From Planctomycetota bacterium (lineage in GTDB: Bacteria; Planctomycetota; Phycisphaerae; WQYP01), in the NCBI GenBank assembly GCA_021818445.1, contig JAKAEB010000001.1, positions 16,664 through 80,663 on the forward strand: DNA of 64,000 nt, written 5' to 3'. Under the pieces are notes generated by a model. It was not told the DNA's origin. It worked only from the letters and a program-made list of their open reading frames with translations, and ran no database searches. Position numbers and translations under genes: made by a program. Shown piece after piece: positions 6,254-53,585 of the stretch (positions are counted from its first letter, which is position 1; each line of letters begins with the position of its first letter).

Positions 6254-9200
6254 TCAACCACCAGCCTTCTGCATTGATTTTACCATTTTAACCGCCTGTC
6301 GGTGAATGCGGCGCTGCTGATTTCCCAACATGCGGATTTGCATGCGAATGGCTTTGCGCCCGGTGGCCGAGGTGGTTTTGGCCAACTGGCCATTGAGTTG
6401 GTGCGTCTGCAGATTAATTTGCAGTTGCAAAATACGCAGTAATTTCAGTTGCGCTGCGGGCGGAATAAGGGGCTGTTGACCACCACCTCCACCACCGCCT
6501 CCGCCACTGGATAAATGTTTAATGTGGTTGGTCAGTGCCTCAATGACTGCATCAAGCTGGGAAATGGCCATCTGCTGATCGGCCAACAGGGCACCATCAA
6601 CTTCCGCCTGGTCAAGCCGGGTACGGGCAGCGTGCATTGATTTACCAATGCCGCGGTTCATCCACGCCAGCACCGGGGCCTTAGCACTGATTTTTTGAGT
6701 GATGGCGTCCAGCCGGTGGATCAATTGCGTTTCGCCTTTGGATTCGCCAGCAATTTGCAAAATCTGCGGTCGCGTCGGCGGATGGCCCGCCGGTATTTCC
6801 GATTGAAGTTTTTTGGAAAGGCCGTACATAACGTTCTGCTGATGGCGGATTTTGAGATACATGGCCTTGAGTCCTGACAGCGTCTGCATCTGCTGCTTGG
6901 CCCGGTCTTTATTCAATAATTTTTGTAAAATTGCCACCGCCCGTTTCAGCCAACCGATGGCCTGTGATTGATGCGGCACGGCCAGCGGTTGATTGGCATT
7001 TTCCATCTGGCCGGTGGCTCGCCCCATCTGGTGCGATGCCGCCATTAAAAAGGCATGGGCATAACCCGACGGATCGGCCCGGCGGCTTTTGCCAGCCAGT
7101 TCCGCTGCTGTGAGTTCAAATTGCGATTGCCGGTTTGCAAGCGGTGCGAGTGTCAATCGTGATGCGTTGGGCGGCTCGGCCCCCGTTGCCGCTGCCAGAA
7201 GTTTTTGATCGCGCAACAGTAATTTTACCTGCGATAATAAACTTTTAAGACGGCTGATCTGCCGCGATAGCGATCGCTTGGCCTCTTTATTGAGTTCATG
7301 AAGCATCTTTTTGAGCCCCTTGGCTGCCTGCTTCTGATTAACCGAGGCCGATTGAAGATGATTCTGCTCCGCGCTGCTGGATGCCTGTCCCATCGCACCG
7401 GGAACGGAAAACTGGGCAGACATCCGGGCCGCCGCCCTAAGAGCCGAAGCCATGTGCGGGTTGGATTTGGCCATCTGTGTCGCCGCACGGTTCAGGCGGT
7501 TGGCCAGTTGGGCCGCTCGGGATGCCAGCGCCTTTTGTGCGGCCGCAAGTGCTTGAAGCTTCTGTTGCAGCGCCTTTGACAGCTTTGAAAACGGCTTGCC
7601 CAGCGTTTGTTTGGCCACCTCACGTAGCTGCCGCTCCAACGCTTCCTGCTGAGCCAGCAGCCGGGCCGTGGCGTGCCGCAAAGCGGCAAATTCACCCGTT
7701 GCCCCCAGTTGTGCCACCAGTGCCTTCATGCGGCGAATAGCTTCGGTTTGCCGACCGGCGGCCGAACCGAGTGGCTTGCTGGCCTTTGGTGTCTGACCGG
7801 CTTTTACGTCGCGATTGGCCTGCGACAGGTGGCTTTGCGCCCGGGGCATTACATGTCGGCCAATTCTCGTCATTACCCGTCGGGCGTTGCCGATGGTTTG
7901 GCCGATGGATCGCTTGGTAAGGTTATTGCGGCGGGCAATCGCGGATAGCTTTTCAAGTTCGCGGGCGATGGCCTGGGCGCTAAGCGCGTCACGATTTTGC
8001 CGGTGTGGAGACTCGTCAAGAAGCAACTTTTGCGACGCTGTCAGGGCATGAGCAGTCTGGATCGCCCGCTGGAGCAACTGCGTCTGGTCACGAACAGCAC
8101 GCTGGTGTTTGATGAGCGACTCAATCGAGTGCCGCACCGCCCGCAGTGACCGTTGTAATTGCTGCTGAATCTGCGCCGGACTCAAAATGCTGATAACCAG
8201 CCGGGGTGAATTGACTGCGGGATGTTGGTGGGGGGGCGTTGGGCTGGAGTAGTTATCCCGCACCTGCGCCATGAGATCGATTTGATCGCCCGCCTTGAGA
8301 TGCATGGATTGCGGCGTCCACCGTACAACCGCCTTACCAACTTGCTGATGGGTAAGCGAACTGTAACGCAGCGATTGCCACGCTGCGGTTTGGCGGTACG
8401 ACGGCTTAGTCTTGCCGCCGCGGCCCCGTTGCACACCCACAACAGATAGCGCGGTCAGACCAAGGTCGTCCGAGGCGCGAATATGCAGATGGATATGCGC
8501 GTCGGGAGTTAAATCCAGTGCATAGCGCGGATGGGTAATAGCGACCTGCGGCAGGGCATCGGGCACCACTATCACTCTAAAGCGCCCGCCGCGCTGGCTA
8601 CTTAAATCGTGCTTATCGGTTACCTGTAACCGTCCGTTGAACGACGCCTGCGGTCGGTACACGATAATCACCTGATGCGATGCAGCGCCGGTGGCCGCCT
8701 TGGATGTGATGATGTGAACCGGGGCTGGGCCACCAACCACCTGGGTACCTGCAACTGCCTGATTGCTCGCCGCTGTGATCGTGACGGTTGATCCGCGGAT
8801 AACCTGCGCCCGGTGCGAGAGCAGATTTATCTGGTAACTCGGTGCCCCGTGGGCGTAGGGGGGAGGAGAAATGGTCGCCAGAACCGAGAGAATCCGCGGC
8901 CGCGGCAGAACGGTTATAGTTGTCCACGGGTTGCGGTCGTCATCGCCTGCTCTGACGCGCAGCATCAATGTGCCGGATTGCGGCAGGACCACTTTTTCAT
9001 ATTCGCGTCCCTTTGCCTTCCCTTGCCATGTCATTAATTGTGATTGGCGACCGGCATGCGCCGATTTGATTTCCAGCCAGACACGGAGGTCTTGGCTGAA
9101 GCCCCGGCTGACGCGTGCCGTGACGGTGAACGGACTGCCGCTCGGCAGAATTTTCGGTGGACCGTTTTTGCCCCAGGCAAGACGGACTAAAACGTGCAGT

Positions 9201-9808
9201 GGCCAAGGATTGGGAGCCAGCGGATCCGTCCAGCGGTGCAAACTGATGCCCGCCAGCCGTGGTGCAGAAAATACCAATCCGGCGACAATCGCCAACGCCA
9301 CGATCAACCACACGGCATAGCGACGAATAAGCCGCCAAGACAGGGCATCCCGAAGCCGGATTTGCGCTGCCGCCATTTGTGCGGCCTCCACCGCCCGCGC
9401 CGCCAAAGCGTTGCGTTCAAACAGGCCAGAATCGAGAAAATCCAGCGCCGCAGATATTTCGTCGTGAGTTAAGTGCCCGGTCTTTTCAAGATGGTGCGCC
9501 AGCATATGTCGCGGCACGCGGCGTATGGCGGGCCGAAGAACGTTCCATACCAACCCCGCAGTCACGCCCAGTAAGAATAAGATGGCCAGCACCAAACGCA
9601 GCGGCCCCGGAAAATGCAGCACATAATCCGCCGCACCCAGCACCATCAACACCGATAATGCCATTGAAAGCGTAAGCAGCAATCCCAACAGCATGAGCCG
9701 ACGGCGGATGGCCTGCGCCAAACCATTAATTTTAGATGGCAATTGCGTGCCAGGCGGTGTTTGCAGTAGTGTCATCGGCAGTTCACCAACTTGTTCTTCC
9801 CGCGGCAA
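6254..9808 (-). CDS. DUF4175-like large membrane-anchored coiled-coil protein (terminal gene of Bat-like operon)
   Basis: 1184 aa. N-terminal TM helices, then a long Ala/Gln/Arg/Leu-rich predicted coiled-coil region. Internal SSGGGGGGGGGQQP tract. Its start lies 43 bp downstream of the end of the preceding operon gene. Confidence 0.6.
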   Translation of the reverse strand: MPREEQVGELPMTLLQTPPGTQLPSKINGLAQAIRRRLMLLGLLLTLSMALSVLMVLGAADYVLHFPGPLRLVLAILFLLGVTAGLVWNVLRPAIRRVPRHMLAHHLEKTGHLTHDEISAALDFLDSGLFERNALAARAVEAAQMAAAQIRLRDALSWRLIRRYAVWLIVALAIVAGLVFSAPRLAGISLHRWTDPLAPNPWPLHVLVRLAWGKNGPPKILPSGSPFTVTARVSRGFSQDLRVWLEIKSAHAGRQSQLMTWQGKAKGREYEKVVLPQSGTLMLRVRAGDDDRNPWTTITVLPRPRILSVLATISPPPYAHGAPSYQINLLSHRAQVIRGSTVTITAASNQAVAGTQVVGGPAPVHIITSKAATGAASHQVIIVYRPQASFNGRLQVTDKHDLSSQRGGRFRVIVVPDALPQVAITHPRYALDLTPDAHIHLHIRASDDLGLTALSVVGVQRGRGGKTKPSYRQTAAWQSLRYSSLTHQQVGKAVVRWTPQSMHLKAGDQIDLMAQVRDNYSSPTPPHQHPAVNSPRLVISILSPAQIQQQLQRSLRAVRHSIESLIKHQRAVRDQTQLLQRAIQTAHALTASQKLLLDESPHRQNRDALSAQAIARELEKLSAIARRNNLTKRSIGQTIGNARRVMTRIGRHVMPRAQSHLSQANRDVKAGQTPKASKPLGSAAGRQTEAIRRMKALVAQLGATGEFAALRHATARLLAQQEALERQLREVAKQTLGKPFSKLSKALQQKLQALAAAQKALASRAAQLANRLNRAATQMAKSNPHMASALRAAARMSAQFSVPGAMGQASSSAEQNHLQSASVNQKQAAKGLKKMLHELNKEAKRSLSRQISRLKSLLSQVKLLLRDQKLLAAATGAEPPNASRLTLAPLANRQSQFELTAAELAGKSRRADPSGYAHAFLMAASHQMGRATGQMENANQPLAVPHQSQAIGWLKRAVAILQKLLNKDRAKQQMQTLSGLKAMYLKIRHQQNVMYGLSKKLQSEIPAGHPPTRPQILQIAGESKGETQLIHRLDAITQKISAKAPVLAWMNRGIGKSMHAARTRLDQAEVDGALLADQQMAISQLDAVIEALTNHIKHLSSGGGGGGGGGQQPLIPPAAQLKLLRILQLQINLQTHQLNGQLAKTTSATGRKAIRMQIRMLGNQQRRIHRQAVKMVKSMQKAGG

Positions 9809-9851: not shown

Positions 9852-12212
9852 TCAGATCAGGCCCGCCCGTTTTCGCAGTAACCATTCTACCGTGAGCAAA
9901 ATGACCAACAGAGCTAAAGCCCACGGCTTGTTCCATATCTGATGCGAATGAATAAGCAGATTCTCCACGCTGCGATCGGGAATGTAAGCCCCCGCCTGAT
10001 TAAACGTTGCCGGTCGAAGCATTTTACCTTCAGCGGTGGCTGCCCAGTGGGCCATAGCCGGCAAATCGGCACGGGGATTGACAAACTCCGTTTCCGGCGT
10101 CTGGGCCGATAGCTGCAAGGCCGGAGAATTCACCGGTAACTGACCCGGTTTAAGGGCGAAAGCATATTGCCCGGCTGCCCAAATGTGCACCAAAGTGCGG
10201 AAAACCCCCGGGTTATCGGGTTCCGCCTGCAGGAGGGCCTGCATATGACCGCCGGGGCCTTTAATGGTCATCTGCAATTCATGCGGCAGCGAGGAAAGCA
10301 GGCTTATTCGGTTGATGCGCACCGTCACCGGAACCGATTGCCCCACCAGTACATGGCGACCGGCCGCCTGCATCGCCACTGCCCGTCGCCTTTGAAACAG
10401 CCGGGATCGCGCCAGGGTGCGCATCATCTCAAGCCAATAGCTTTTGTATATCGGCGCACCGTGGTAGGTACGCCAGCGCCAGGTATCGGCGATGGCCGAG
10501 AAAATAGTTCTGCCCGCCCCGTATCGGCCCATGACTATCGCCGGTATGTCCCGGGCTGATATCTGCCGACCGGCCACCATCGCCAGAGCCGTCGCACTTG
10601 GTGAAAGACCCCCGACCGGCTGATACCAGTACAGCGGTGGCAAGTTCGCGACCTCGCGCAGGTTAGCGGCCTCATTATTGAAAAAATGAAACAGCATGCT
10701 CCGGCGTCCTGCCGTTGTGAGATGTAATCCAAATGGTATCCCCTCGACTGGTGCCATCTCCGGGCTTGCAGGATTACCGATGATAATGGGAAGTAATTTA
10801 GCGATCGGCGTCCCGCGGTACGCACCGGGTGAAAACTGCGGCCCCGCGATCATTAAAAATCCGCCGCCGTGATTGCCCACAAAATGCGTGATGAGTTTCA
10901 TCTGCCGCTGCGAAAAATAGTCAGGGTCCACATCGCCGAGAATCAGCACATCATATTGATCCAGTTCAGACTGCGTTTCGGGGAAGCGCCGTATGGGGAT
11001 ATTGCCCGCCTGCGCGAAGTGATTATCCGCCGATAGAAGCAGGCAACTCAGCAAAGTGGTTTTTTCACGTGCAAGGTCATTTTTCAGGTATCGGTATTCC
11101 CACCGCGGATAACCATCCACATAAAGAATTTTTATTTTGGCTTTGACAGCACGGGTCGTCAATGAAAGCTCGTGCCGTTTCCAGCCGGGAACCGGTGGAG
11201 AAAATTCCCCATGGGCCTTGCGAATCACCAGTTGGAGGTGATAGCGGCCTGGTGCCTTGGGCCGCCATGTCAATCTGAGCGGTATTTCCGACTTGCCCGC
11301 CGGAATTAATATCTTTTTACGAGTTAGCAGAACCCGGCCATCAGCACCCACTTCGTAGAGCCTCACATGCCGCACCAGCACGCCGGGGTTCTCCGAAGTG
11401 ATGATTTTGGCCGACACGGGAACAGGGTCGCCTACAAAAGCCTGGTGCGGCGTGCTGCCCTGCGCCAATTCAATACTGAAGGGCAGATGATCACGCCCAA
11501 TTGGTACCGTTATCAGTCTTACGGCCCGGCGCTTAAGCTCACTGGCCATTGCCCTGCTTGATGTGCGGTGTGTGTCGCGGCCATCCGAAAGTATCATCAG
11601 GGCGCTGACCGGCTGACCGGAAAGCTGGCCCATTACCTGTGACACAATTGTGGGAATGTCGGTCGAACTGGCAGCCGGTTTGATTTTACCGAGTTCCGCC
11701 AGCAGGGCGTCCAATTGCTTTTGATTTTCAGCCGCTCCGAGCAGGCGTGCCCGGCTGCCGCCCGTATAGATCACCACTTTCTGCCGTTTTAATAGTGCAC
11801 CCAGCCATCCTTTCTGGGCCTGTTGCAGCATGGTCACCGCCATCTGAAACCGGGTGGGGTGCGACTGATGCGATGCCAATAGGATATCGTGTAACTTGGC
11901 CGCCTCCTTCGGCGGATATTCGTCGCGAAGGGTCATCGAGAGAGATGAATCCACCCAGATCACCACGCGGCCCCGCTGCCGCACTAACTGATGGCTTACC
12001 AGTGCCGGCTCCATAAGCAGAAGTGCCACTGTCAGCAAGACCGCCGCCCGCAAGCCCGCCAAGGTCCATTTGTAGCGGGGTGCCGCACCTTGGGCACGAT
12101 AGCTCCAGGCACCAAAAGCAACGGCGGCAAGAGCGAGCAAGCTCATCCACACTGGATGGTTGGTCATAAAAACCAGATGATCAGACGCCGCAATCAGATA
12201 TGGGCCATTCAT
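9852..12212 (-). CDS. VWA-like / class-I glutamine-amidotransferase-like (DUF1355-type) membrane protein of Bat-like operon
   Basis: 786 aa. N-terminal TM segments. VVIWVDSSLSM is a VWA-like start. The segment ILYVDGYPRWEYRYL...YDVLILGDV resembles a GATase1-like fold. ATGA overlap with the upstream gene. Confidence 0.55.
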   Translation of the reverse strand: MNGPYLIAASDHLVFMTNHPVWMSLLALAAVAFGAWSYRAQGAAPRYKWTLAGLRAAVLLTVALLLMEPALVSHQLVRQRGRVVIWVDSSLSMTLRDEYPPKEAAKLHDILLASHQSHPTRFQMAVTMLQQAQKGWLGALLKRQKVVIYTGGSRARLLGAAENQKQLDALLAELGKIKPAASSTDIPTIVSQVMGQLSGQPVSALMILSDGRDTHRTSSRAMASELKRRAVRLITVPIGRDHLPFSIELAQGSTPHQAFVGDPVPVSAKIITSENPGVLVRHVRLYEVGADGRVLLTRKKILIPAGKSEIPLRLTWRPKAPGRYHLQLVIRKAHGEFSPPVPGWKRHELSLTTRAVKAKIKILYVDGYPRWEYRYLKNDLAREKTTLLSCLLLSADNHFAQAGNIPIRRFPETQSELDQYDVLILGDVDPDYFSQRQMKLITHFVGNHGGGFLMIAGPQFSPGAYRGTPIAKLLPIIIGNPASPEMAPVEGIPFGLHLTTAGRRSMLFHFFNNEAANLREVANLPPLYWYQPVGGLSPSATALAMVAGRQISARDIPAIVMGRYGAGRTIFSAIADTWRWRTYHGAPIYKSYWLEMMRTLARSRLFQRRRAVAMQAAGRHVLVGQSVPVTVRINRISLLSSLPHELQMTIKGPGGHMQALLQAEPDNPGVFRTLVHIWAAGQYAFALKPGQLPVNSPALQLSAQTPETEFVNPRADLPAMAHWAATAEGKMLRPATFNQAGAYIPDRSVENLLIHSHQIWNKPWALALLVILLTVEWLLRKRAGLI

Positions 12213-14485
12213 GCGTGGGCCCCCGTCAATTGCGTCGAGAGCCGATAACGCGAAAATGCCCTCGCCGCCAATGCCTCACTGGCGAGGATCATCAATCCCA
12301 GCAACAGCATCAGCCAGCCCACATTGCCCGCCGGGCCCGTGGACTTGCTTCGATGAGAATGCAATTGTGTCGGCTCACCGACTATACGGTCGGGCAGGAC
12401 CCCGAAACAGCGCGCCGCCAGCGCTGTCGACACATGGGCGATATTGGCATTTCCGGCCGCATCCACATTGACCGCTACCGTCGGCGTGCCATTTCCTGCC
12501 TTGTAAACACCTGCGGAATCAAAAGGCGGGCTGGAGAGTTGCAAATGATGACTATGCTTACTTCCAATCAGGTGCTCTTTGAGCGCCATTATCTGCCCGT
12601 CCGGCCCGCGTAATTTCAGCGACGCATGTCCGTGCGGCCGAAGCACCAATCTCTGGCCCACCTGCACATTGCGCCGCTGCCCGCCCGCCGTCAGCACACG
12701 GTCAAATACGCGGTATATCAGCGGCAGAAAAGAAGGCTGAGCTGGCAGATTGGTCCACTGGGTGTCACAGGTGGTGCCCCACATGGCCACCTTGCCTTTA
12801 CCAAAATTCCCCGCCACCAGCAGCGGCTTGCCGCCGCGCATCTTTAATAAAATCTCCGCATGCGGCCGGACCAGCAGGGGTGTGTATTGATCAATTGTTA
12901 TATGGAAAATTCCGGTATGTATGCCCTGCCGTTGGGCGGCGATAAACGGCCCTGTAATCGTTCGGGTGCTTCGTACCACGTCCAAGGTTTGCGGGCGATT
13001 TTTGGGGGTAGTCACTCGCGGCCCGAACTCCGCAGGAAGCAGGCCGCCAGCCAGGTGCGACCATGCGGATGTATCCGCTTCCCGGCCGGGATAAATCACC
13101 AGCGTGCCGCCTCGGCGCACAAATGCCATTAGACGCTGCAAATCGGCGGCGTCGGGCGGTGCCACATCGCTTAGCACAACCGCCGCATCATGCCGCAGAT
13201 TTGCCTCCGGTAAATCAGTCATTTCAATACGACGCGGGTTGAATCGATTTCCTTTGGCAGCCGGTGCCAGCGCCGCCTCCAGCCACGCCGTTGAAGCCAA
13301 AACTCCCTGCGATGGATCGCCCGGTCTACCATCAACCAGCAGCACGCCAATCGCACGCCGTGCCTTGAAGATGCGCGATCTTACATTATCAATCGGCAGC
13401 CCATCGGTCACGATGCGCGCCGTCAGGTCGTGCCATCCCGCCGTATCCACCGGGTTGGGCAATAGCATATCGCTGGTCAAAGATTCTTCGCCCCGCAACG
13501 TGCCGACAGTCTGCCGCCCGGCACTTACCCCATCGATAAAAAAGTGGACGCCGACATTCGGCTCCGCTTGCTGCCCGCTGTTAAGCAGTGTCAACCGCAC
13601 ATGAATATTGTGGCCAATCAATATTGCTGGCCGCGAAAACCGCAGATGCGTAATCGCCATATTGACGGCACCAGCGTGGCCCACGTCAAAGACGCGAAAA
13701 CTGGCCCCCGCCTTTTTTATGGCCTTGACCGCACGCCGAATATCCTCCACATGGGGTGACGGATGCGCCAAAGGATTGCTCCCGTTGGGACAGCCAAAAT
13801 CCGATGCCGCATCATCCGTAACCACCCACACCCGCACCGCCGCCGCCCGCTTTTGCCACTTGTGTGCCAGCGACGCGGCCCGCGCCAGCGCCGGGGCCAG
13901 CGACAGTCCGCCTTCCGTTACCTTCTGCCGTGCAATCAGCGCCGTTACGCTTGGTGACGCTGGTACCGGTTTTTCCAGCAACGGCCCGCTTCCTTTTGCG
14001 GCACCGATGATCGCCACCCACTGCCCGCCGATGAGTTGCTCGCTCCAGTGCTTAAGCAAGCGCCGACTCCGGGCAAACGGGCTTCCACCGGATGCAGGCA
14101 CATACCCCATCGGATACGCATTGTTCCATACAATTATGGTCAGCCGGCTGCCACTTCCCATCAGGGCGGACAACCCCCGGCTGAACGGGATGAATTGAGC
14201 AATCCCTGCCGCCAGCAGCAACAATGCCAGACACCGCAGCAGCAGAAGCAAAAGTCGCTGCAGCTTCAGCCGTCGCACATTGCGGCGGTAGGCCGCAATT
14301 AAAAATTGCATCGCCGCCCAGGGCTTTTGTCGGAATCGGCGTCGATTCAGCAGGTGAATAATGATGGGGATGCTGATACTCGCTGCGCCGGCGGCAAAAA
14401 GCCACGGCGAAACAAACGGCAACACCGCTACAGGAAACGATACCAACATCAACTCCACCCTGTCGGGCCCGCCCGACGAATTCAT
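12209..14485 (-). CDS. BatA-like protein with N-terminal double-transmembrane domain (TIGR02226-type) and VWA-like region
   Basis: 758 aa. N-terminus LVSFPVAVLPFVSPWLFAAGAASISIPIIIHLLNRRRFRQ matches the conserved IPIIIHLLxRR two-helix anchor. Confidence 0.65.
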   Translation of the reverse strand: MNSSGGPDRVELMLVSFPVAVLPFVSPWLFAAGAASISIPIIIHLLNRRRFRQKPWAAMQFLIAAYRRNVRRLKLQRLLLLLLRCLALLLLAAGIAQFIPFSRGLSALMGSGSRLTIIVWNNAYPMGYVPASGGSPFARSRRLLKHWSEQLIGGQWVAIIGAAKGSGPLLEKPVPASPSVTALIARQKVTEGGLSLAPALARAASLAHKWQKRAAAVRVWVVTDDAASDFGCPNGSNPLAHPSPHVEDIRRAVKAIKKAGASFRVFDVGHAGAVNMAITHLRFSRPAILIGHNIHVRLTLLNSGQQAEPNVGVHFFIDGVSAGRQTVGTLRGEESLTSDMLLPNPVDTAGWHDLTARIVTDGLPIDNVRSRIFKARRAIGVLLVDGRPGDPSQGVLASTAWLEAALAPAAKGNRFNPRRIEMTDLPEANLRHDAAVVLSDVAPPDAADLQRLMAFVRRGGTLVIYPGREADTSAWSHLAGGLLPAEFGPRVTTPKNRPQTLDVVRSTRTITGPFIAAQRQGIHTGIFHITIDQYTPLLVRPHAEILLKMRGGKPLLVAGNFGKGKVAMWGTTCDTQWTNLPAQPSFLPLIYRVFDRVLTAGGQRRNVQVGQRLVLRPHGHASLKLRGPDGQIMALKEHLIGSKHSHHLQLSSPPFDSAGVYKAGNGTPTVAVNVDAAGNANIAHVSTALAARCFGVLPDRIVGEPTQLHSHRSKSTGPAGNVGWLMLLLGLMILASEALAARAFSRYRLSTQLTGAHA

Positions 14486-14494
14486 TCAATGATG

Positions 14495-15427
14495 CTAAGC
14501 CATCCGCGCCGCACGCGAAGCAAGAAAATTTGGCAGCGACACATCCAATGGCACACTGGTGTCAATCTGCACACAATCCACCCGCAATTGATGGCAGGCA
14601 TCGCGAATGCGGTTATTGTGCTCCGTTATCTCTTTCAGGTAAGCCTCACGCAGAGCCTGTGGCTCCACCACCAGCTCGCTTGCCTCTTCCATCCCCTTGA
14701 ACATCGTGGTTTGATTAAATGGAAAATCCAGTTCGTCATGATCCAGCACCTGCAGGCATATCAGATCATGCCGACGGTAACGCAGGTGCCGTACCCCTTT
14801 GATTAAGCGCTCCGGGTCATCAAACATATCGCTTACCAGTATCACGAGACTGCGATGTTTAATTTCTTCGGCAATCTGATCAAGCACCATCCCCGTGTCG
14901 GTTTTTGGTTCACCCACAGTGGCGGATAATTCTTCGATCATGATCCGCCATTGCCGCGGATTATTCGACGGGCGGATGATCCGACGTACCCGCGAATCGT
15001 AAACCGCCAGACCGGCGCTGTCCCGTTGCTGCAGGGCCGCATACGCCAAACTGGCTGCAATACTGATGGCGTGATCATACTTTCGCCACGTCGGGTTATT
15101 GCGACCGCTGTATGCCATCGACGCCGATGCATCCACCACCAGCATGACCTGCAAATTGGTTTCTTCCTCGTATTGTTTAATGTAATGCCGGTCGGTGCGG
15201 CCAAACACCTTCCAATCGATAAATTTAATATCATCGCCGCTGGTGTACGGCCGATGCTGGGCAAATTCAATCGAAAAGCCCTTATATGGCGACCGGTGCA
15301 TCCCGCTGATAAAACCCTCCACAATCAACCGGGCCCGGATGTCCAATGCACCAATCTTGGCCAGTACCTTCGGGTCAAGGTATTGGCGGTAATCAATTTT
15401 TTCTTCAGGTAAGTTCTCGGCTGCCAT
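14495..15427 (-). CDS. DUF58 domain protein (VWA-like, MoxR partner)
   Basis: 310 aa. FxGxHxSxxxGxSxEFAxxRxYxxGDDxxxIDWKVFGRTDRHYIKQYEEE signature of DUF58. Confidence 0.8.
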   Translation of the reverse strand: MAAENLPEEKIDYRQYLDPKVLAKIGALDIRARLIVEGFISGMHRSPYKGFSIEFAQHRPYTSGDDIKFIDWKVFGRTDRHYIKQYEEETNLQVMLVVDASASMAYSGRNNPTWRKYDHAISIAASLAYAALQQRDSAGLAVYDSRVRRIIRPSNNPRQWRIMIEELSATVGEPKTDTGMVLDQIAEEIKHRSLVILVSDMFDDPERLIKGVRHLRYRRHDLICLQVLDHDELDFPFNQTTMFKGMEEASELVVEPQALREAYLKEITEHNNRIRDACHQLRVDCVQIDTSVPLDVSLPNFLASRAARMA

Positions 15428-15461
15428 GCTGCTCCAACGGTATTCAGCTTTCCACCGGCGG

Positions 15462-16520
15462 TTATGCCGTTACCTTCGCCACCATGGTGGAATCGGCGGA
15501 CTCTGTCACTGGCGTATTTTCAATTAACATCCGCACAATGTCGTCGGAGCGAATCCCTTCGGCTTCTGCATTGAAGTTCGTCAGCACGCGATGCCGCAGT
15601 GTGGGTGGTGCCACCGCACGAATGTCCTGCGTGCTCACGTGGTGTCGCCCTTGCAGTAAGGCCCGCGCCTTGCCCGCCAGTACCAAATACTGCGATGCCC
15701 GTGGCCCTGCCCCCCACGACACATAATCTTTCACAAATTTCGGCACGTCACCCTTGATGACGCGCGTCTGCCGCGTCAGCTTGAGGGCATACCTCACCAC
15801 ATGGTCCGGAACCGGCACTTTGCGCACCAGCTCCATAAGTTGTAGAACTTCTTCACCCGTGATCACCGGATCAATTTGCACCTGCCGCGGGGCGGTTGTC
15901 AATCGCACGATGTCAAATTCTTCCTGCTCGGACGGATAGTCCACCAGCACCTGAAACATAAATCGGTCAAGCTGTGCCTCGGGCAGCGGGTAGGTGCCTT
16001 CCTGCTCGATCGGATTCTGTGTGGCCATTACAAAAAACGGTTCGGGCAGCCGTCGCTGCACCCCACCGGCCGTCACTTGGTGTTCCTGCATGGCCTCAAG
16101 CAGCGCGGCTTGTGTTTTTGGCGGTGTACGGTTGATTTCATCCGCCAATACGGCATTGGCAAAGATTGGGCCCTTCACGTAGCGCAGCGCCCGTTGCCCG
16201 GTTGTCTTATCTTCTTCAATCACTTCGGTACCGGTAATATCCGATGGCATCAGGTCGGGTGTAAACTGCACGCGGTTAAAACTCAGCGTCAATGTCTTGG
16301 CCAGCGTCGATACCAGCAGTGTTTTCGCCAGCCCCGGCACGCCCACCAGCAGGCAGTGTCCGCGGCAAATCAATGTGATGAGCAATTCCTCAATCACCTT
16401 TTCCTGACCCACGACGGCCTTGGCCAATTCTTTTTGCAGCCGCGTGGCGGTGTTTTGCAGTTTTTGAATGCTTTCCATTTCGGCGGGGGACAAATCGAGC
16501 GGATCACGCGATGAATCGGT
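15462..16520 (-). CDS. MoxR-family AAA+ ATPase
   Basis: Walker A GVPGLAKT and Walker B LLADEINR. Typical MoxR length. Start chosen at MTDSSRDPL with GGAG 9 nt upstream; the track ORF extends to 16586. Confidence 0.85.
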   Translation of the reverse strand, partial: TDSSRDPLDLSPAEMESIQKLQNTATRLQKELAKAVVGQEKVIEELLITLICRGHCLLVGVPGLAKTLLVSTLAKTLTLSFNRVQFTPDLMPSDITGTEVIEEDKTTGQRALRYVKGPIFANAVLADEINRTPPKTQAALLEAMQEHQVTAGGVQRRLPEPFFVMATQNPIEQEGTYPLPEAQLDRFMFQVLVDYPSEQEEFDIVRLTTAPRQVQIDPVITGEEVLQLMELVRKVPVPDHVVRYALKLTRQTRVIKGDVPKFVKDYVSWGAGPRASQYLVLAGKARALLQGRHHVSTQDIRAVAPPTLRHRVLTNFNAEAEGIRSDDIVRMLIENTPVTESADSTMVAKVTA

Positions 16521-16698
16521 CATGATGTCGGTACTCCGGATAAGACTCTCGGCCGTGAGCATAACAAATATCGGCGGTTTCTGCATGCCCGCGCGTCTGA
16601 AGCTAAAAAAGCCTCAACTGGCAGCCTGCCCGATTGCTTCGGAGAGGATGCCTCGATCGGCAGGAGCGGCTATCATACAGGCGGTTTTTGGAGGTGAC

Positions 16699-26820: not shown

Positions 26821-27211
26821 ATGTCGGCCGCATGCCCCATGTTTAGCGCCGTCGCCGGGCGATGGGCGCTAATTGCAATGCCAAATTGCGGCCCCTGTGA
26901 CAACAACGTCGCATCCGCCCCCCCATTTAGCCGCGTGCATGGTGCACGCGTGACGACGCATGACCCATCCGGCCGCCCCTATTTTCAACACAAAGCGCGC
27001 CAAGAAAAGAACGCCAGCCGATTAGTTTTTTATTAACCACGACCATGGCACCGACCCCAATAATTCGGCTTTACGCCCGCAATATTGCGACGCGGGCAGC
27101 GGGCGGCGAATGGCTGGCGCATCCACGCCGGTCGGGTTTCCTCAAAAATTGGCCGGCTTCAGCGCGTGCGTTGGTACGGTCATCAGCCGATGCGCTTTTC
27201 GGACGATTGGC

Positions 27212-27988
27212 TCATTCGATGGCTGCGGTTTTGCCTGCAGCATCGGCGGCGGGGGCCATGGGGCGCAGAAGCGTGGCGATCTTGGCGTCAAGCGGTGCCC
27301 GCCTCGCAAGGTAAGGCCTTGCCACAGTCCATGCGACCAACGCCACCGCCGGGCAAAGGAACCAAAGTCCCCCCGAGAAAGCCACCCTCTGCGTAAGTAC
27401 CGAAAATACCACAAGCAAACCGTCCGCATATTCTACCGCTTTCGAGGTGGCACCAATCCAGCAGGCATCCGGTGTCCCCGACGGGCCGCTTGCCTCGATA
27501 ATCACTGCGGACGCACCCTTATCGTACCGAGTGGCGGATAGAACAAAATACTGCTTCCTGTCGCCCCGAACCACGAAGCCCGCGACCGGGAACCGATACC
27601 CGCTCGCCGGCCCGAATCCCTCTTCTGCAGCCAGAAGGGCGACCTTTTCGGCCGGCAGCGCGACCGCGACGCCCCTCGGCGTGTCATGCAACAGTCCCAA
27701 GGCTCGGATGGGGGCTACCGCGTCGCGGCCCCAACGCCTCGCAACGAGTACCGCGAGGAAAACCAGGCAACTCAATATTCCGATTAACGACCAGAATCCC
27801 TCCACCCAGAGACGGCCGTACAGCAGGGCCCCCGAGTTGTATAAGCCGTCGAAGACTTCAAAGAGCGTAACCGCAACGGCACCACCGCACAAAGACTCGA
27901 TACATACGTTAGAAAACCGAGCGAGCGTCCAATCGAATTTACTGCGTCTGACAAAAATTGGCTGCGATGCAACACCAGTGCCGCTCAT
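27212..27988 (-). CDS. Candidate immunity protein (integral membrane) cognate to the upstream RHS-CT toxin
   Basis: Start MSGTGVASQPIF... overlaps the toxin stop (CCATGA, with ATG nested in TGA). ~258 aa with several hydrophobic helices. Assignment is by position only. Confidence 0.45.
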   Translation of the reverse strand: MSGTGVASQPIFVRRSKFDWTLARFSNVCIESLCGGAVAVTLFEVFDGLYNSGALLYGRLWVEGFWSLIGILSCLVFLAVLVARRWGRDAVAPIRALGLLHDTPRGVAVALPAEKVALLAAEEGFGPASGYRFPVAGFVVRGDRKQYFVLSATRYDKGASAVIIEASGPSGTPDACWIGATSKAVEYADGLLVVFSVLTQRVAFSGGLWFLCPAVALVAWTVARPYLARRAPLDAKIATLLRPMAPAADAAGKTAAIE

Positions 27989-28731
27989 GGTACCACCACC
28001 GGCTGTGTGCCAACCCAAGTTGGCCCGTAAACCCTTATCCATTTGGTCTGATAGGGATTGCCGTCGAGGGCCCAGTCGACCGCATCGGTTGCCCCCTCGC
28101 TGGCCGCCGCACCCACGGCCAGGCTCTGTACGGGATTTTTTGTTAAAAGGCCCGTCCCGGCGGCTGCGGCCGTTCCGACAACCATTCCGACGGCGTGCGT
28201 AAACCAAGCAGGTGGATTCTCACCCCGTTCAACCTGCGCCGTGGGTGCGTACACAGGAAGTCCTATTTTTACGCAATGCCCGTCCACCATCACTTTATGG
28301 ATGCCGGTGTAGCCGACCTTTTCCCTGCCCGTCGCGCCCGTGAAATGCCACCCGCCAGCGAGTAATGGACCGAGTACGGCACCGCCAACCCCATCGTAGG
28401 GCGGTGGGAGGTTGGTCGGATAATTCCCCGCGTTTCGGCCAGAGTATTGCTGCAACAGAGCCTGCGTTTGGGGCGAAAGTGGCGGAGGCGGTGGATACAA
28501 GTTCGGATTGCCGCCGCCCAACCCGGAGGCATCTGCCTTCCCCACCGGGCTGCTTTGGACGCATTCGTAAAGATTGATTCCGCCTTGGTAGCCGATCGGG
28601 TCGCGGGTAAGCCACCTGCCCAGATGCGCGGCATAATACCGGTTCCGCACATAATAATTCTGCGTTTCGGCATCGGCGTTGTAGCTGCTACCGCCCGTGG
28701 GAGTTTTATTTTCAGCAATTGCGACCATCAA
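27985..28731 (-). CDS. Orphan RHS repeat-associated core tail + C-terminal polymorphic toxin domain (glycine-zipper-rich)
   Basis: Starts inside the RHS core terminus: YYVRNRYYAAHLGRWLTRDPIGYQGGINLYECVQSSPVGKADASGL, matching RYYDPxxGRFxxxDPIGxxGGxNLYxY...DPxGL. Followed by an unrelated ~170-aa tail containing VGMVVGTAAAAGTGLL. No RHS repeats upstream. Confidence 0.7.
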   Translation of the reverse strand: MMVAIAENKTPTGGSSYNADAETQNYYVRNRYYAAHLGRWLTRDPIGYQGGINLYECVQSSPVGKADASGLGGGNPNLYPPPPPLSPQTQALLQQYSGRNAGNYPTNLPPPYDGVGGAVLGPLLAGGWHFTGATGREKVGYTGIHKVMVDGHCVKIGLPVYAPTAQVERGENPPAWFTHAVGMVVGTAAAAGTGLLTKNPVQSLAVGAAASEGATDAVDWALDGNPYQTKWIRVYGPTWVGTQPVVVP

Positions 28732-29050
28732 TCGGCCTCAAAACTGGAATCAACAACTGGCAACATAACGCGCGGGGGTTCGGGCTGCAAGGAGGGCACA
28801 GCGATATTTCGCACAGGAATGCGTCATTCGTTAGCGCGCCGGGACAAGCCCGGCGGCTCGCTGGGCCATTCCCATACCGAAAGTTTTAACTGTTAACTTT
28901 GCGAATCTCGCGGTGAGGAAAAGGAGTTTGCACCGCCGGGTGCGCCGAGAGCGCGAAGATTTGCGAATCTGATTATTTCGTATTTGTTAATTCTCTCCGC
29001 GGCTCCGAGGCTCTGTGCGAGATATAAAAACCTCTCTGTGTGACATAATG

Positions 29051-29088
29051 CATCATGCCGATGGCATGATGATGTTTGTTGTTTTTTT
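29051..29088 (+). terminator. Perfect 9-bp hairpin (CATCATGCC-gat-GGCATGATG) + T-rich tail, repeat copy 1
   Basis: catcatgccgatggcatgatgatgtttgttgttttttt. Reads as an intrinsic terminator on the plus strand. On the minus strand a second hairpin (GCCACA-acctc-TGTGGC) plus TCTTTTTCTCT lies 15 nt away. Confidence 0.45.
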
Positions 29089-29363
29089 AGCGCGCAGAGA
29101 AAAAGAGCCACAGAGGTTGTGGCACTGGACAAATCTCGCAATATTGGCCGCATCACGACAATTGGGCAGGTCCATATCCCGTATGCTTGGCGTTTCTTGG
29201 CGTCCTCCGCGCCCTTCGCGGTGAATCAGGGTAATTATTTGCACCGCCGGGAGCGCCAAGAACGCGAGGACTTGCGAAACTGATTATTTTGTATTTGTTA
29301 ATTCTCTCCGTGCCTCCGAGTCTCTGCGCGAGATCGTAACACTTCCCTGTGCAAGTAAAGGTA

Positions 29364-29401
29364 TCATGCCGATGGCATGATGATGCTTGTTGTTTGTTTT
29401 T
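29364..29401 (+). terminator. Same hairpin/T-tail motif in repeat copy 2
   Basis: atcatgccgatggcatgatgatgcttgttgtttgttttt. Confidence 0.4.
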
Positions 29402-29696
29402 AGCGCACAGAGAAAAGAGCCACAGAGGCTGCGCCACCGTATCAAACACGATCCCTTGGCCGAAGCATCCCAATTGGGCATCTCCGGGCAAGCCCGCGGC
29501 CATGTATTTCTGGCGAGCGAGACCGGTGATTGGGCGCAGCGCGGGTACTTTTGGTGTGACGTATCCAGCCCTGAAAAAAACGCTTAGCACATTGCGGCAC
29601 CAACTGAACCCCTAAAATGTTATCGATGTTCACTCCGGGTTGATTCAGCCCGATTTCCGTCTTGACCCTGTCTGCCCGCATTGATATAGTCACCGG

Positions 29697-52694: not shown

Positions 52695-53585
52695 TCAGTC
52701 GACAGTTCTCAGTGAAAGCCCCAGTTCAGCCAAACGGCTTTTTACCTCGTCCAAACTGGTTTCGCCAAAGTTTTTAACACCAAGCAATTCGGCTTCGGTT
52801 CGCGCCGCCAAATCGCCCACGGTTGCAATGCCGAGCCGTTCAAGTGCTCGCGCGGCCCGCAGAGGCAATTGCAATTCGGTGACGGGTTTGGCAAAGGTTT
52901 CCGGAGGGACGCGATCTGCCACCTGCTTGAGAATTTCCTGCTTCTGCATTTCATGGGCTTCATCGGCGGCCTGCCCGAGCCGCAAACCTTTTTTCGTGAG
53001 CATCTGCTTGATTTCGTCGAGGCTGGTTTCACCAAAATTCTTGTAGCTCAGCAGGTCTGCTTCCGTGGTACGCAGCAGATCGCCCAGTGATCGAATGTTC
53101 ATCTTCTTGAGGCAATTGCGAGCGCGGGCGGAAAGTTCAAAATCTGTCACCGAGGTGCTCAGCAGCAGATCACGCGGGGCCAGGCGTCTTTCGGGCTCTT
53201 CCTGCACTTCCATACCGATGGAACCATCCACGTGCTGATAATACATTCGGCCCATCGGGTGGTTGGGGTCGGCCTGCAAGAGACGATGAAGACACTTTTC
53301 GGCTTCATCATACATACCATCATCCTCGTACAGGACCGATAGGTTGATAAGCACATTGGCATAAGTCGGCTGCTTTTCAGCCAGCAATTCATAAAGCTCA
53401 ATGGCACGATCATCGTCGCCTGATAAATCCTGATAGCACGCAAGTTGAAAGGTAATCGCATCATCATCGGGAGATTTGGCATGCGCTTCCTCCAGCAGGT
53501 CCACGGCCTTTTCAAGTTGGCCGATATGCACAAGTTCATGTGCCCGCTGTATTACTTCCGGCTGATTGGTCGTCATGGTGGTCAT
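52695..53585 (-). CDS. TPR + tandem RNA polymerase alpha-subunit C-terminal-domain-like (HhH) protein
   Basis: Two copies of LxxSVxxLELSxRAxNxLxxxGIxTVGDLxxxTEAELLxxKNFGETSLDEIK, the alpha-CTD signature. N-terminal TPR. Confidence 0.6.
   Translation of the reverse strand: MTTMTTNQPEVIQRAHELVHIGQLEKAVDLLEEAHAKSPDDDAITFQLACYQDLSGDDDRAIELYELLAEKQPTYANVLINLSVLYEDDGMYDEAEKCLHRLLQADPNHPMGRMYYQHVDGSIGMEVQEEPERRLAPRDLLLSTSVTDFELSARARNCLKKMNIRSLGDLLRTTEADLLSYKNFGETSLDEIKQMLTKKGLRLGQAADEAHEMQKQEILKQVADRVPPETFAKPVTELQLPLRAARALERLGIATVGDLAARTEAELLGVKNFGETSLDEVKSRLAELGLSLRTVD

Follow-up and report, generated by a model that had tools for sequence, protein, structure and literature searches.

Can a toxin gene that retains only the end of an RHS core act as a gene in its own right, or is it a spare part that becomes active only after recombination? 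The question is raised by a two-gene cassette, open reading frames (ORFs) A and B, in a 64-kb stretch of contig JAKAEB010000001.1 from a Planctomycetota bacterium of the Phycisphaerae (GCA_021818445.1), called here the window. RHS toxins are understood as cargo inside a large β-shell that is passed to a secretion machine, with truncated copies regarded as silent spares. The pattern in Phycisphaerae differs, in that shell-less cassettes form a large and diversifying set, equipped with start signals of their own and with an N-terminal peptide that is conserved. With moderate confidence, ORF A/B is interpreted here as a shell-less polymorphic toxin and immunity cassette of RHS origin that is expressed independently and belongs to a large family specific to Phycisphaerae. 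As judged from its sequence, ORF A is probably an active gene and not a silent spare part. To our knowledge, interbacterial weapons in Planctomycetota are almost unstudied, and no published description of short RHS-tail cassettes in this phylum was found in the literature.

Both genes lie on the minus strand, as do all cassette features given below, and their coordinates were verified. ORF A, a putative short-form RHS-tail toxin, encodes 247 aa plus stop (28728..27985), and ORF B, a candidate membrane immunity protein, 258 aa plus stop (27988..27212). The list of ORFs gives TTG 28731 as the start of ORF A, and alignment with the family moves the real start to ATG 28728. Because a TGA stands in frame at 28740..28738, ORF A cannot extend further 5'. 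The encoded protein comprises a 14-aa leader (aa 1–14), a 56-aa RHS core tail (aa 15–70) and a 177-aa C-terminal domain (CT; aa 71–247). Its stop codon TGA (27987..27985) overlaps the ATG of ORF B at 27988 within ccATGAgc. Copies of ORF A that are identical or 99% identical were found in several assemblies, and the A/B pair is identical and in the same arrangement in GCA_027436235.1, GCA_027426515.1 and several ENA and Logan assemblies.

An earlier sequence-only reading of the locus had taken the N-terminus of ORF A for the tail of an RHS core, and the profile search agreed. Residues 16–71 align to positions 21–76 of the 76-position NCBIfam profile TIGR03696 (Rhs_assc_core) with 56.6 bits (E 2.7e-15), against a curated cutoff of 32.5 bits. 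The tail (28519..28686) was also recovered by tblastn and by alignment to solved cores. When a profile of the tail is aligned to solved RHS/Tc cores, it falls on the ~52 residues at their extreme C-terminus: 1014–1065 of 1065 in S. bongori Rhs (8qjd_A), 641–690 of 690 in YenC2 (4igl_B) and 1068–1121 of 1121 in Tse5 (8cp6_B), and likewise in TccC3 (4o9x). Both residues of the aspartyl autoprotease motif are kept, D43 (RDPIG) and D66 (DASGL), 23 residues apart, and they are conserved at 90% or more across 121 short proteins of the family. Cleavage is predicted after L70. The TcC/RHS cores of YenC2 (4igl) and TccC3 (4o9x) share with ORF A these last ~52 residues, the two Asp at a distance of 23 and the DxxGL ending. 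Unlike ORF A, where the shell is absent, they use the segment to close a toxin-enclosing β-shell of ~1000 residues. The ratio of nonsynonymous to synonymous substitution rates (dN/dS) over aa 15–70 is 0.32–0.36, indicating moderate constraint.

No RHS body was found in the whole window, by tblastn or by Pfam searches of the large neighbouring ORFs. As had been claimed, no RHS repeat body lies upstream: used as tblastn queries, four RHS proteins, of which three are full-length, matched the window solely at 28683..28519, and Pfam detected no RHS_repeat match (RHS/YD repeats) in ORF A. A profile of the ORF A CT matched seven proteins among 1.84e9 representatives, several of them fragments or decayed copies and none with RHS sequence beyond the core tail. 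Two matches outside the query set are complete (loci and proteins carry our L and P numbers): P0009, which has a tail-less MVA start, and P0242, the most distant, which has a tail and the leader MVV-LDKQF.

Full-length RHS proteins of 2016–2628 aa are encoded in related metagenome-assembled genomes (MAGs) at L033, L059, L065 and L076, and their N-termini are unrelated to those of the short forms. The short forms are therefore not simple internal deletions that keep the full-length start; internal deletion of a full-length gene bearing such a start of its own was rejected for the same difference. A split RHS with the shell supplied in trans was also considered and set aside, as none of the cassette-bearing loci yielded an RHS shell ORF that lacks the tail.

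When ORF A was compared with 5.8 billion protein clusters, 162 matches were obtained. The best 120 of these are all short (136–432 aa) and open with M-V-A-[hydrophobic]-[N/A/D]-E; no full-length RHS protein with a closely related tail is among them. A further search, for which a longer member of the family served as seed, brought the retrieved set to 240 related short proteins from Phycisphaerae MAGs, of which 121 start with MVA. The start signals are conserved as well. Upstream of ORF A, TGAGG (28736..28740) combines the in-frame stop with an overlapping ribosome-binding-like GAGG, 7 nt 5' of the ATG. The arrangement *G[RQP]xMVA, in which the asterisk is the stop, is conserved in three different genomes, and across many MAGs, 38 distinct upstream regions were seen to have a ribosome-binding-like site and, a few codons 5' of the ATG, an in-frame stop.

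The leader of ORF A (28687..28728) reads MVAIAENKTPTGGS. From proteins and loci, 122 distinct leader 14-mers were gathered, which give the family motif M-V-A-[LIFCV]-[NAD]-E-x-[LKF]-x-x-x-[GA]-[GT] with the Glu present in 74%. The codons for Val (GTC/GTT) and Ala (GCA/GCG/GCC) vary synonymously, so selection on the leader acts at the peptide level. A leader selected as a peptide would most likely be a targeting or export signal. Scanning of metagenomes with the leader DNA ATGGTCGCNNTNAATGAAAA gave at least 120 matches, and none among the matches listed carries an RHS tail.

The leader resembles double-glycine leaders, and export through a C39-ABC transporter was therefore considered. This candidate was dropped: GG occurs at positions 12–13 in class 36, a subgroup described below, and is not universal in the family. 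Only two ABC exporters were seen across the cassette-bearing loci that were examined, and such exporters are not enriched close to cassettes; no exporter was found among the scanned ORFs of the window, in a search that did not address the C39 domain directly.

Further 5', a lineage-specific, promoter-like block at 28762..28790 consists of TTGCAG (28790..28785), a 17-nt spacer and TATGTT (28767..28762). A block of the form GCGCG-T-TAKGYT is found at the same offset 5' of cassettes in other MAGs, and in another lineage the upstream block is TTTGCTTTGC-N17-TACAAT with a variable spacer. By its conservation, 28762..28790 is a candidate promoter.

Beyond this block, two tandem noncoding repeats of ~312 nt occupy 28865..29500, 5' of ORF A. 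Each unit carries several terminator-like hairpins, such as CATCATGCC-ATC-GGCATGATG, and the repeat region holds nine terminator-like sites compared with 4.2 +/- 2.0 in shuffled sequences. At same-species loci the 312-nt repeat occurs in one to four copies of ~75–88% identity, 5' of the first class-36 cassette (L094 4741-5864, L091 649-1641, L096 728-1246 and L097 3233-3547). Speculatively, the repeats may shield the cassette from transcription arriving from upstream, or provide a substrate for recombination and so for exchange between loci. A structured RNA was considered and rejected, since the stems are conserved yet show no covariation and no Rfam match.

In one ENA assembly (L008 2726-3860) the repeats connect ORF A/B with the flank that lies before a different cassette in L091, as seen by comparison with window positions 28732-29431 and L091 649-1976. 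Either the loci have recombined through the repeats to give this junction, or the assembly is chimeric. The arrangement of the window itself is also present in L007, L220 and L221. Contigs from other samples, compared in search of an empty site, either are arranged in the same way or are broken within the repeats.

The short proteins fall into classes according to how far the GRW..DPxG motif lies from MVA, at 36, 50, ~78–86, 106–107, ~170–200, ~277–316 and ~496–541 aa. ORF A, with 36 aa from MVA to GRW, belongs to class 36, the shortest common class. The 20 proteins of this class carry 20 unrelated CT clusters on the same leader plus tail of ~70 aa. Across all classes, 102 MVA proteins with a recognisable tail were grouped into 65 CT clusters, 23 of which occur on more than one scaffold class. 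Pfam recognised a toxin domain in one of the 121 MVA-start proteins (Ntox24) and DUF6861 in one. As the 65 CT clusters are otherwise unclassified, the MVA family amounts to a large stock of unknown toxin domains.

DNA comparison of paralogous cassettes located the point at which these modules are exchanged. Homology spans the upstream repeats, the leader and the tail and stops at 28529/30, in the Asp codon of DASGL. This is the canonical RHS junction and the swap point for CT/immunity modules; the recombination breakpoint is thus at the DPxGL end and not at the start of the ORF, where the sequence-only reading had put it. Other class-36 cassettes, single or paired, sit between housekeeping genes. 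One belongs to the MAG of the window itself, at a second locus that adjoins adenylosuccinate synthase (L097), and others are in apparently conspecific MAGs, at L094, which adjoins metK, and at L091. Tandem arrays are found at L001, L053 and L097; arrays in other MAGs (L001) contain at least six cassettes, each followed by a different small ORF.

Two side observations concern related cassettes. At L004 (7274-9698), a second MVA cassette (250 aa) lies just 5' of P0004, an orthologue of ORF A, and is followed by a gene for a 548-aa Sel1-repeat protein, a putative immunity protein of a different type. In addition, the complete chromosome OY776568.1, of another Phycisphaerae lineage, encodes short RHS-tail cassettes (L067 3470/7448/9590 and L068 9506) whose conserved N-terminus is MARRRRLSVWGVLRKLG.... 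Because these cassettes share a different N-terminus, lineage-specific leaders on shell-less RHS cassettes may be a general phenomenon.

The 177-aa CT of ORF A has no match in Pfam, NCBIfam, PDB sequences, PHROGs or PADLOC, consistent with the earlier remark that it fits no recognised family. Alignment with its orthologues, which are 45–68% identical and include those at L004, L011 and L012, divides it into three parts. The N-terminal subdomain (aa 71–170; 28219..28518) has a Pro-rich linker, the motifs YSGRNxxNYPxNxPPPYDGxGG and LGPLLAGGWxFTG, and then a long β-hairpin. Against three orthologues its dN/dS is 0.12–0.18, indicating strong purifying selection. The following 55 residues (aa 171–225; 28054..28218) are hypervariable, with nonsynonymous divergence (pN) saturated at 0.53–0.66. 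The conserved C-terminal segment (aa 226–247; 27988..28053) has the motif PxQxxW[IV]RVYGPxxVG, and its last codons contain a ribosome-binding-like site for ORF B. Nucleotide homology to L011 ends at 28223, where the variable segment, and after it the immunity gene, begin.

Every member has a hydrophobic, Gly/Ala-rich variable segment with a Pro/Gly turn at its centre and one to eight GxxxG motifs. In ORF A it has one GxxxG and 11 small-xxx-small motifs, so that its earlier description as glycine-zipper-rich was correct as to a Gly/Ala-rich hydrophobic segment of 55 aa and overstated as to the zipper, the hydropathy being 1.27. The homologues are more hydrophobic in this segment (1.1–2.1; maximum 2.08) and have up to eight GxxxG. 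Residues 171–225 are a putative membrane-inserting helical hairpin and specificity determinant.

ORF B was confirmed as a likely membrane protein, with three segments predicted by Kyte–Doolittle hydropathy at aa 28–46, 60–87 and 201–223. In the word-indexed set of 5.8e9 protein clusters it matches only itself. Nevertheless, weak homologues (26–28% identity) trail every toxin orthologue, with 27.6% identity over 127 aa (E 4e-7) and 26% over 185 aa (E 4e-4) to ORFs 3' of them. All of these partner ORFs have two N-terminal hydrophobic helices and a soluble domain of ~100 aa. The stop/start overlap, which had been read as toxin/immunity coupling, is also conserved: the 4-nt ATGA is kept in four of four orthologous pairs, with GGAGG/GGTGG inside the last codons of the toxin. 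The hydrophobic segment of the toxin and the downstream membrane protein gene diverge together. An immunity role of ORF B is suggested by this co-divergence, by the conserved co-occurrence and by hydropathy.

Known membrane toxins offer two comparisons. Gly-zipper membrane toxins are known on an Rhs protein (Tse5) and on an LXG protein (EsxX; PMC12744356). Tse5 (RhsP1)/Tsi5 of Pseudomonas aeruginosa and EsxX share with ORF A/B a Gly-rich hydrophobic CT and a membrane-associated immunity protein. Unlike ORF A, Tse5 is full-length, shell-bearing and delivered by a type VI secretion system; the CTs show no similarity, and ORF A has its single GxxxG and sub-threshold hydropathy. The ionophore toxins of contact-dependent inhibition (CDI) systems, CdiA-CT/CdiI, have a conserved N-part, a variable membrane-active C-part and integral-membrane immunity proteins with ~30% identity within a group (PMC11630599). 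ORF A/B resembles them in its two-part CT and polymorphic membrane immunity, with immunity proteins 26–28% identical. In contrast to ORF A/B, CDI ionophores are delivered by the type V pair CdiA/CdiB and are predicted to form a five-helix bundle, compared with a hairpin of ~55 aa after a β-rich domain here. No homology between the ORF A CT and CDI ionophore toxins was detected, and searches of Pfam, NCBIfam and PDB sequences gave no similarity to Tse5-CT, CdiA-CT ionophores or EsxX. As the pattern of conserved N-part, variable C-part and polymorphic immunity matches CDI ionophores, and as Gly-zipper toxins are known in Tse5 and EsxX, we infer a toxin that depolarises membranes, paired with a membrane immunity protein.

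The cassette would most likely work as follows. Transcription would start at the cassette-specific promoter-like block, with the hairpin-bearing tandem repeats lying 5' of it. Translation begins at ATG 28728 behind GAGG, as the sequence and the family-wide conservation of this start indicate. The leader would most likely direct targeting or export. The tail, with both catalytic Asp kept, is predicted to cut after DASGL and so to release the CT. The same tail would act as the 5' homology arm for swaps of CT/immunity modules between paralogous cassettes, in keeping with the junction at its end. The CT would most likely insert into the cytoplasmic membrane of a target cell and dissipate the membrane potential, and ORF B, translated by ATGA coupling as an integral membrane protein, would neutralise its cognate hairpin within the membrane.

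Several observations weigh against an active, exported cassette of this kind. The promoter-like hexamers score below the threshold of a generic sigma-70 scan. In ORF A no known type of secretion signal was detected, and no secretion system or transporter was found in the window or enriched near cassettes. In the hypervariable segment of ORF A, the maximum 19-aa hydropathy of 1.27 is under the transmembrane threshold. The AlphaFold2 (AF2) model of ORF A, built from a 10-sequence alignment, has a mean predicted local distance difference test (pLDDT) score of 39 and exceeds 50 only around aa 127–170; the single-sequence AF2 model of ORF B, with helices, a β domain and then further helices, has a low pLDDT of 46. 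Since both models are of low confidence, the case for a membrane hairpin is one of sequence composition. The tail of 56 aa would have to fold, cleave and be delivered without a shell. Among the relatives, P0007, P0008, P0009 and P0020 are decayed by tail loss, frameshift or lack of a start. At L059, MVA cassettes lie 3' of a full-length RHS gene, and the sequences covered are MAG fragments, so that a full-length RHS gene may be present elsewhere in the genome.

Three other explanations were weighed. According to one, the cassette is a classical silent orphan, a displaced rhs-CT/rhsI reserve that is active only after recombination with a full-length rhs gene elsewhere. This model is established in Salmonella, where such orphans lie 3' of the main gene, are usually devoid of translation initiation signals and have CTs that also occur on full-length genes (PMC3967940); C-terminal displacement likewise describes orphan modules of Enterobacteriaceae and Snodgrassella (PMC3967940; PMC5727410). 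ORF A/B shares with these orphans a 5'-truncated core running to DxxGL (DPxGL in the orphans), a variable toxin domain followed by an immunity-like gene, the possibility of tandem arrays, and recombination of paralogues at the canonical core/CT junction. Moreover, full-length RHS genes are available at the four loci of related MAGs named above, one of them next to cassettes. However, unlike the orphans, ORF A has a conserved ribosome-binding site, ATG, leader and promoter-like block, and its truncation point is identical across 20 CTs, where independent displacements would each have their own. Its CT is on no full-length RHS protein among the 1.84e9 representatives. The Phycisphaerae cassettes, the isolated ORF A/B among them, are scattered singly among housekeeping genes and not only 3' of a main gene, and the one adjacent full-length gene examined, at L059, shares core DNA of 70.9% identity over 498 nt, which is a poor substrate for homologous exchange. 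Because the ORF starts at a conserved site and not at an arbitrary truncation point, the silent reading is poorly supported, and we consider it unlikely. The RHS tail, the unclassified CT and the coupled membrane protein of the sequence-only reading therefore stand; its inference of a silent or reserve cassette, or of the tip of a rearranged locus, is at most partly supported, given the conserved start with its MVAxxE leader, the 20 CTs on one scaffold and a CT that is under purifying selection and never on a full-length RHS protein.

Alternatively, the pair could be a non-exported addiction module akin to toxin–antitoxin systems, in which a cytoplasmic toxin attacks the cell's own membrane unless ORF B is present, with a selfish or a stress- or phage-responsive function. 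The missing export signal and secretion partner, the compact bicistronic unit with coupled translation and the scattering of copies among housekeeping genes would all suit such a module. High CT diversity on a constant scaffold and tandem arrays are instead typical of inter-bacterial polymorphic toxins, a conserved N-terminal peptide has no obvious role in an internal pair, and there is neither a PADLOC match nor a phage association, so this explanation appears improbable. Phage carriage had been considered separately and was rejected, as no relatives were found in viral contigs. Finally, the cassette might be kept for the protection that ORF B gives against neighbours, the toxin ORF being only a translated leader. 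Orphan immunity islands are known in other phyla, and coupling would select for an intact upstream frame and start; decayed tails that keep the MVA start do exist, in P0007 and P0009, which carry the CT of ORF A in intact form and have lost the first catalytic Asp while retaining that start. The dN/dS of 0.12–0.18 over the N-terminal subdomain of the CT is not what a mere spacer would show, and the leader is conserved as a peptide, so we regard retention for immunity as very improbable.

An independently expressed toxin and immunity cassette thus remains the preferred interpretation, and it allows a bolder, tentative proposal. It is conceivable, although doubtful at present, that the MVA leader (~14 aa) and the RHS tail (~56 aa) amount to a minimal module that is self-sufficient in targeting and processing. 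This module would combine leader-directed export or loading by an unrecognised route with cocoon-free self-cleavage, and would serve as the constant region for dozens of mostly unclassified toxin domains. It would define a shell-less Phycisphaerae class of RHS-derived polymorphic toxins. If active, the cassettes suggest that polymorphic toxins of Planctomycetota are delivered or targeted by a route as yet unrecognised. The ORF A CT and ORF B would provide a compact, testable membrane toxin/immunity pair with a clear candidate specificity segment.

The remaining features of the locus are minor. A weak terminator-like hairpin, identified by consensus match, lies ~200 nt 3' of ORF B (26997..27014). 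A repeat fragment at 26980-27006, on the 3' side of the cassette, is confined to the window and was treated as a chance occurrence. One of the MVA cassettes at L059 (9290-10753) has an in-frame stop inside an RHS fragment (…SSGAIVEA*DTDAYGNT…) and is probably a pseudogene.

The cassette is flanked by a DJ-1/PfpI gene and a copper-resistance operon. The window's multicopper oxidase has a cluster mate at 90% identity whose annotation assigns it to a Phycisphaerae MAG. Apart from it, the window is of housekeeping character, with MoxR/DUF58/BatA, pyruvate dehydrogenase E1, a GH63-like hydrolase, the DJ-1/PfpI gene and copper-resistance operon already named, trigger factor and LeuA. A 1184-aa ORF without a Pfam family adjoins the MoxR (AAA_3)/DUF58/BatA cluster, which is of the aerotolerance type (6254-9808 and 9852-16586, both on the minus strand). 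An unusual fusion is encoded at 52695-53585 (minus strand), where TPR repeats and two RNA polymerase alpha C-terminal domains (PF03118) are joined in one 296-aa ORF.

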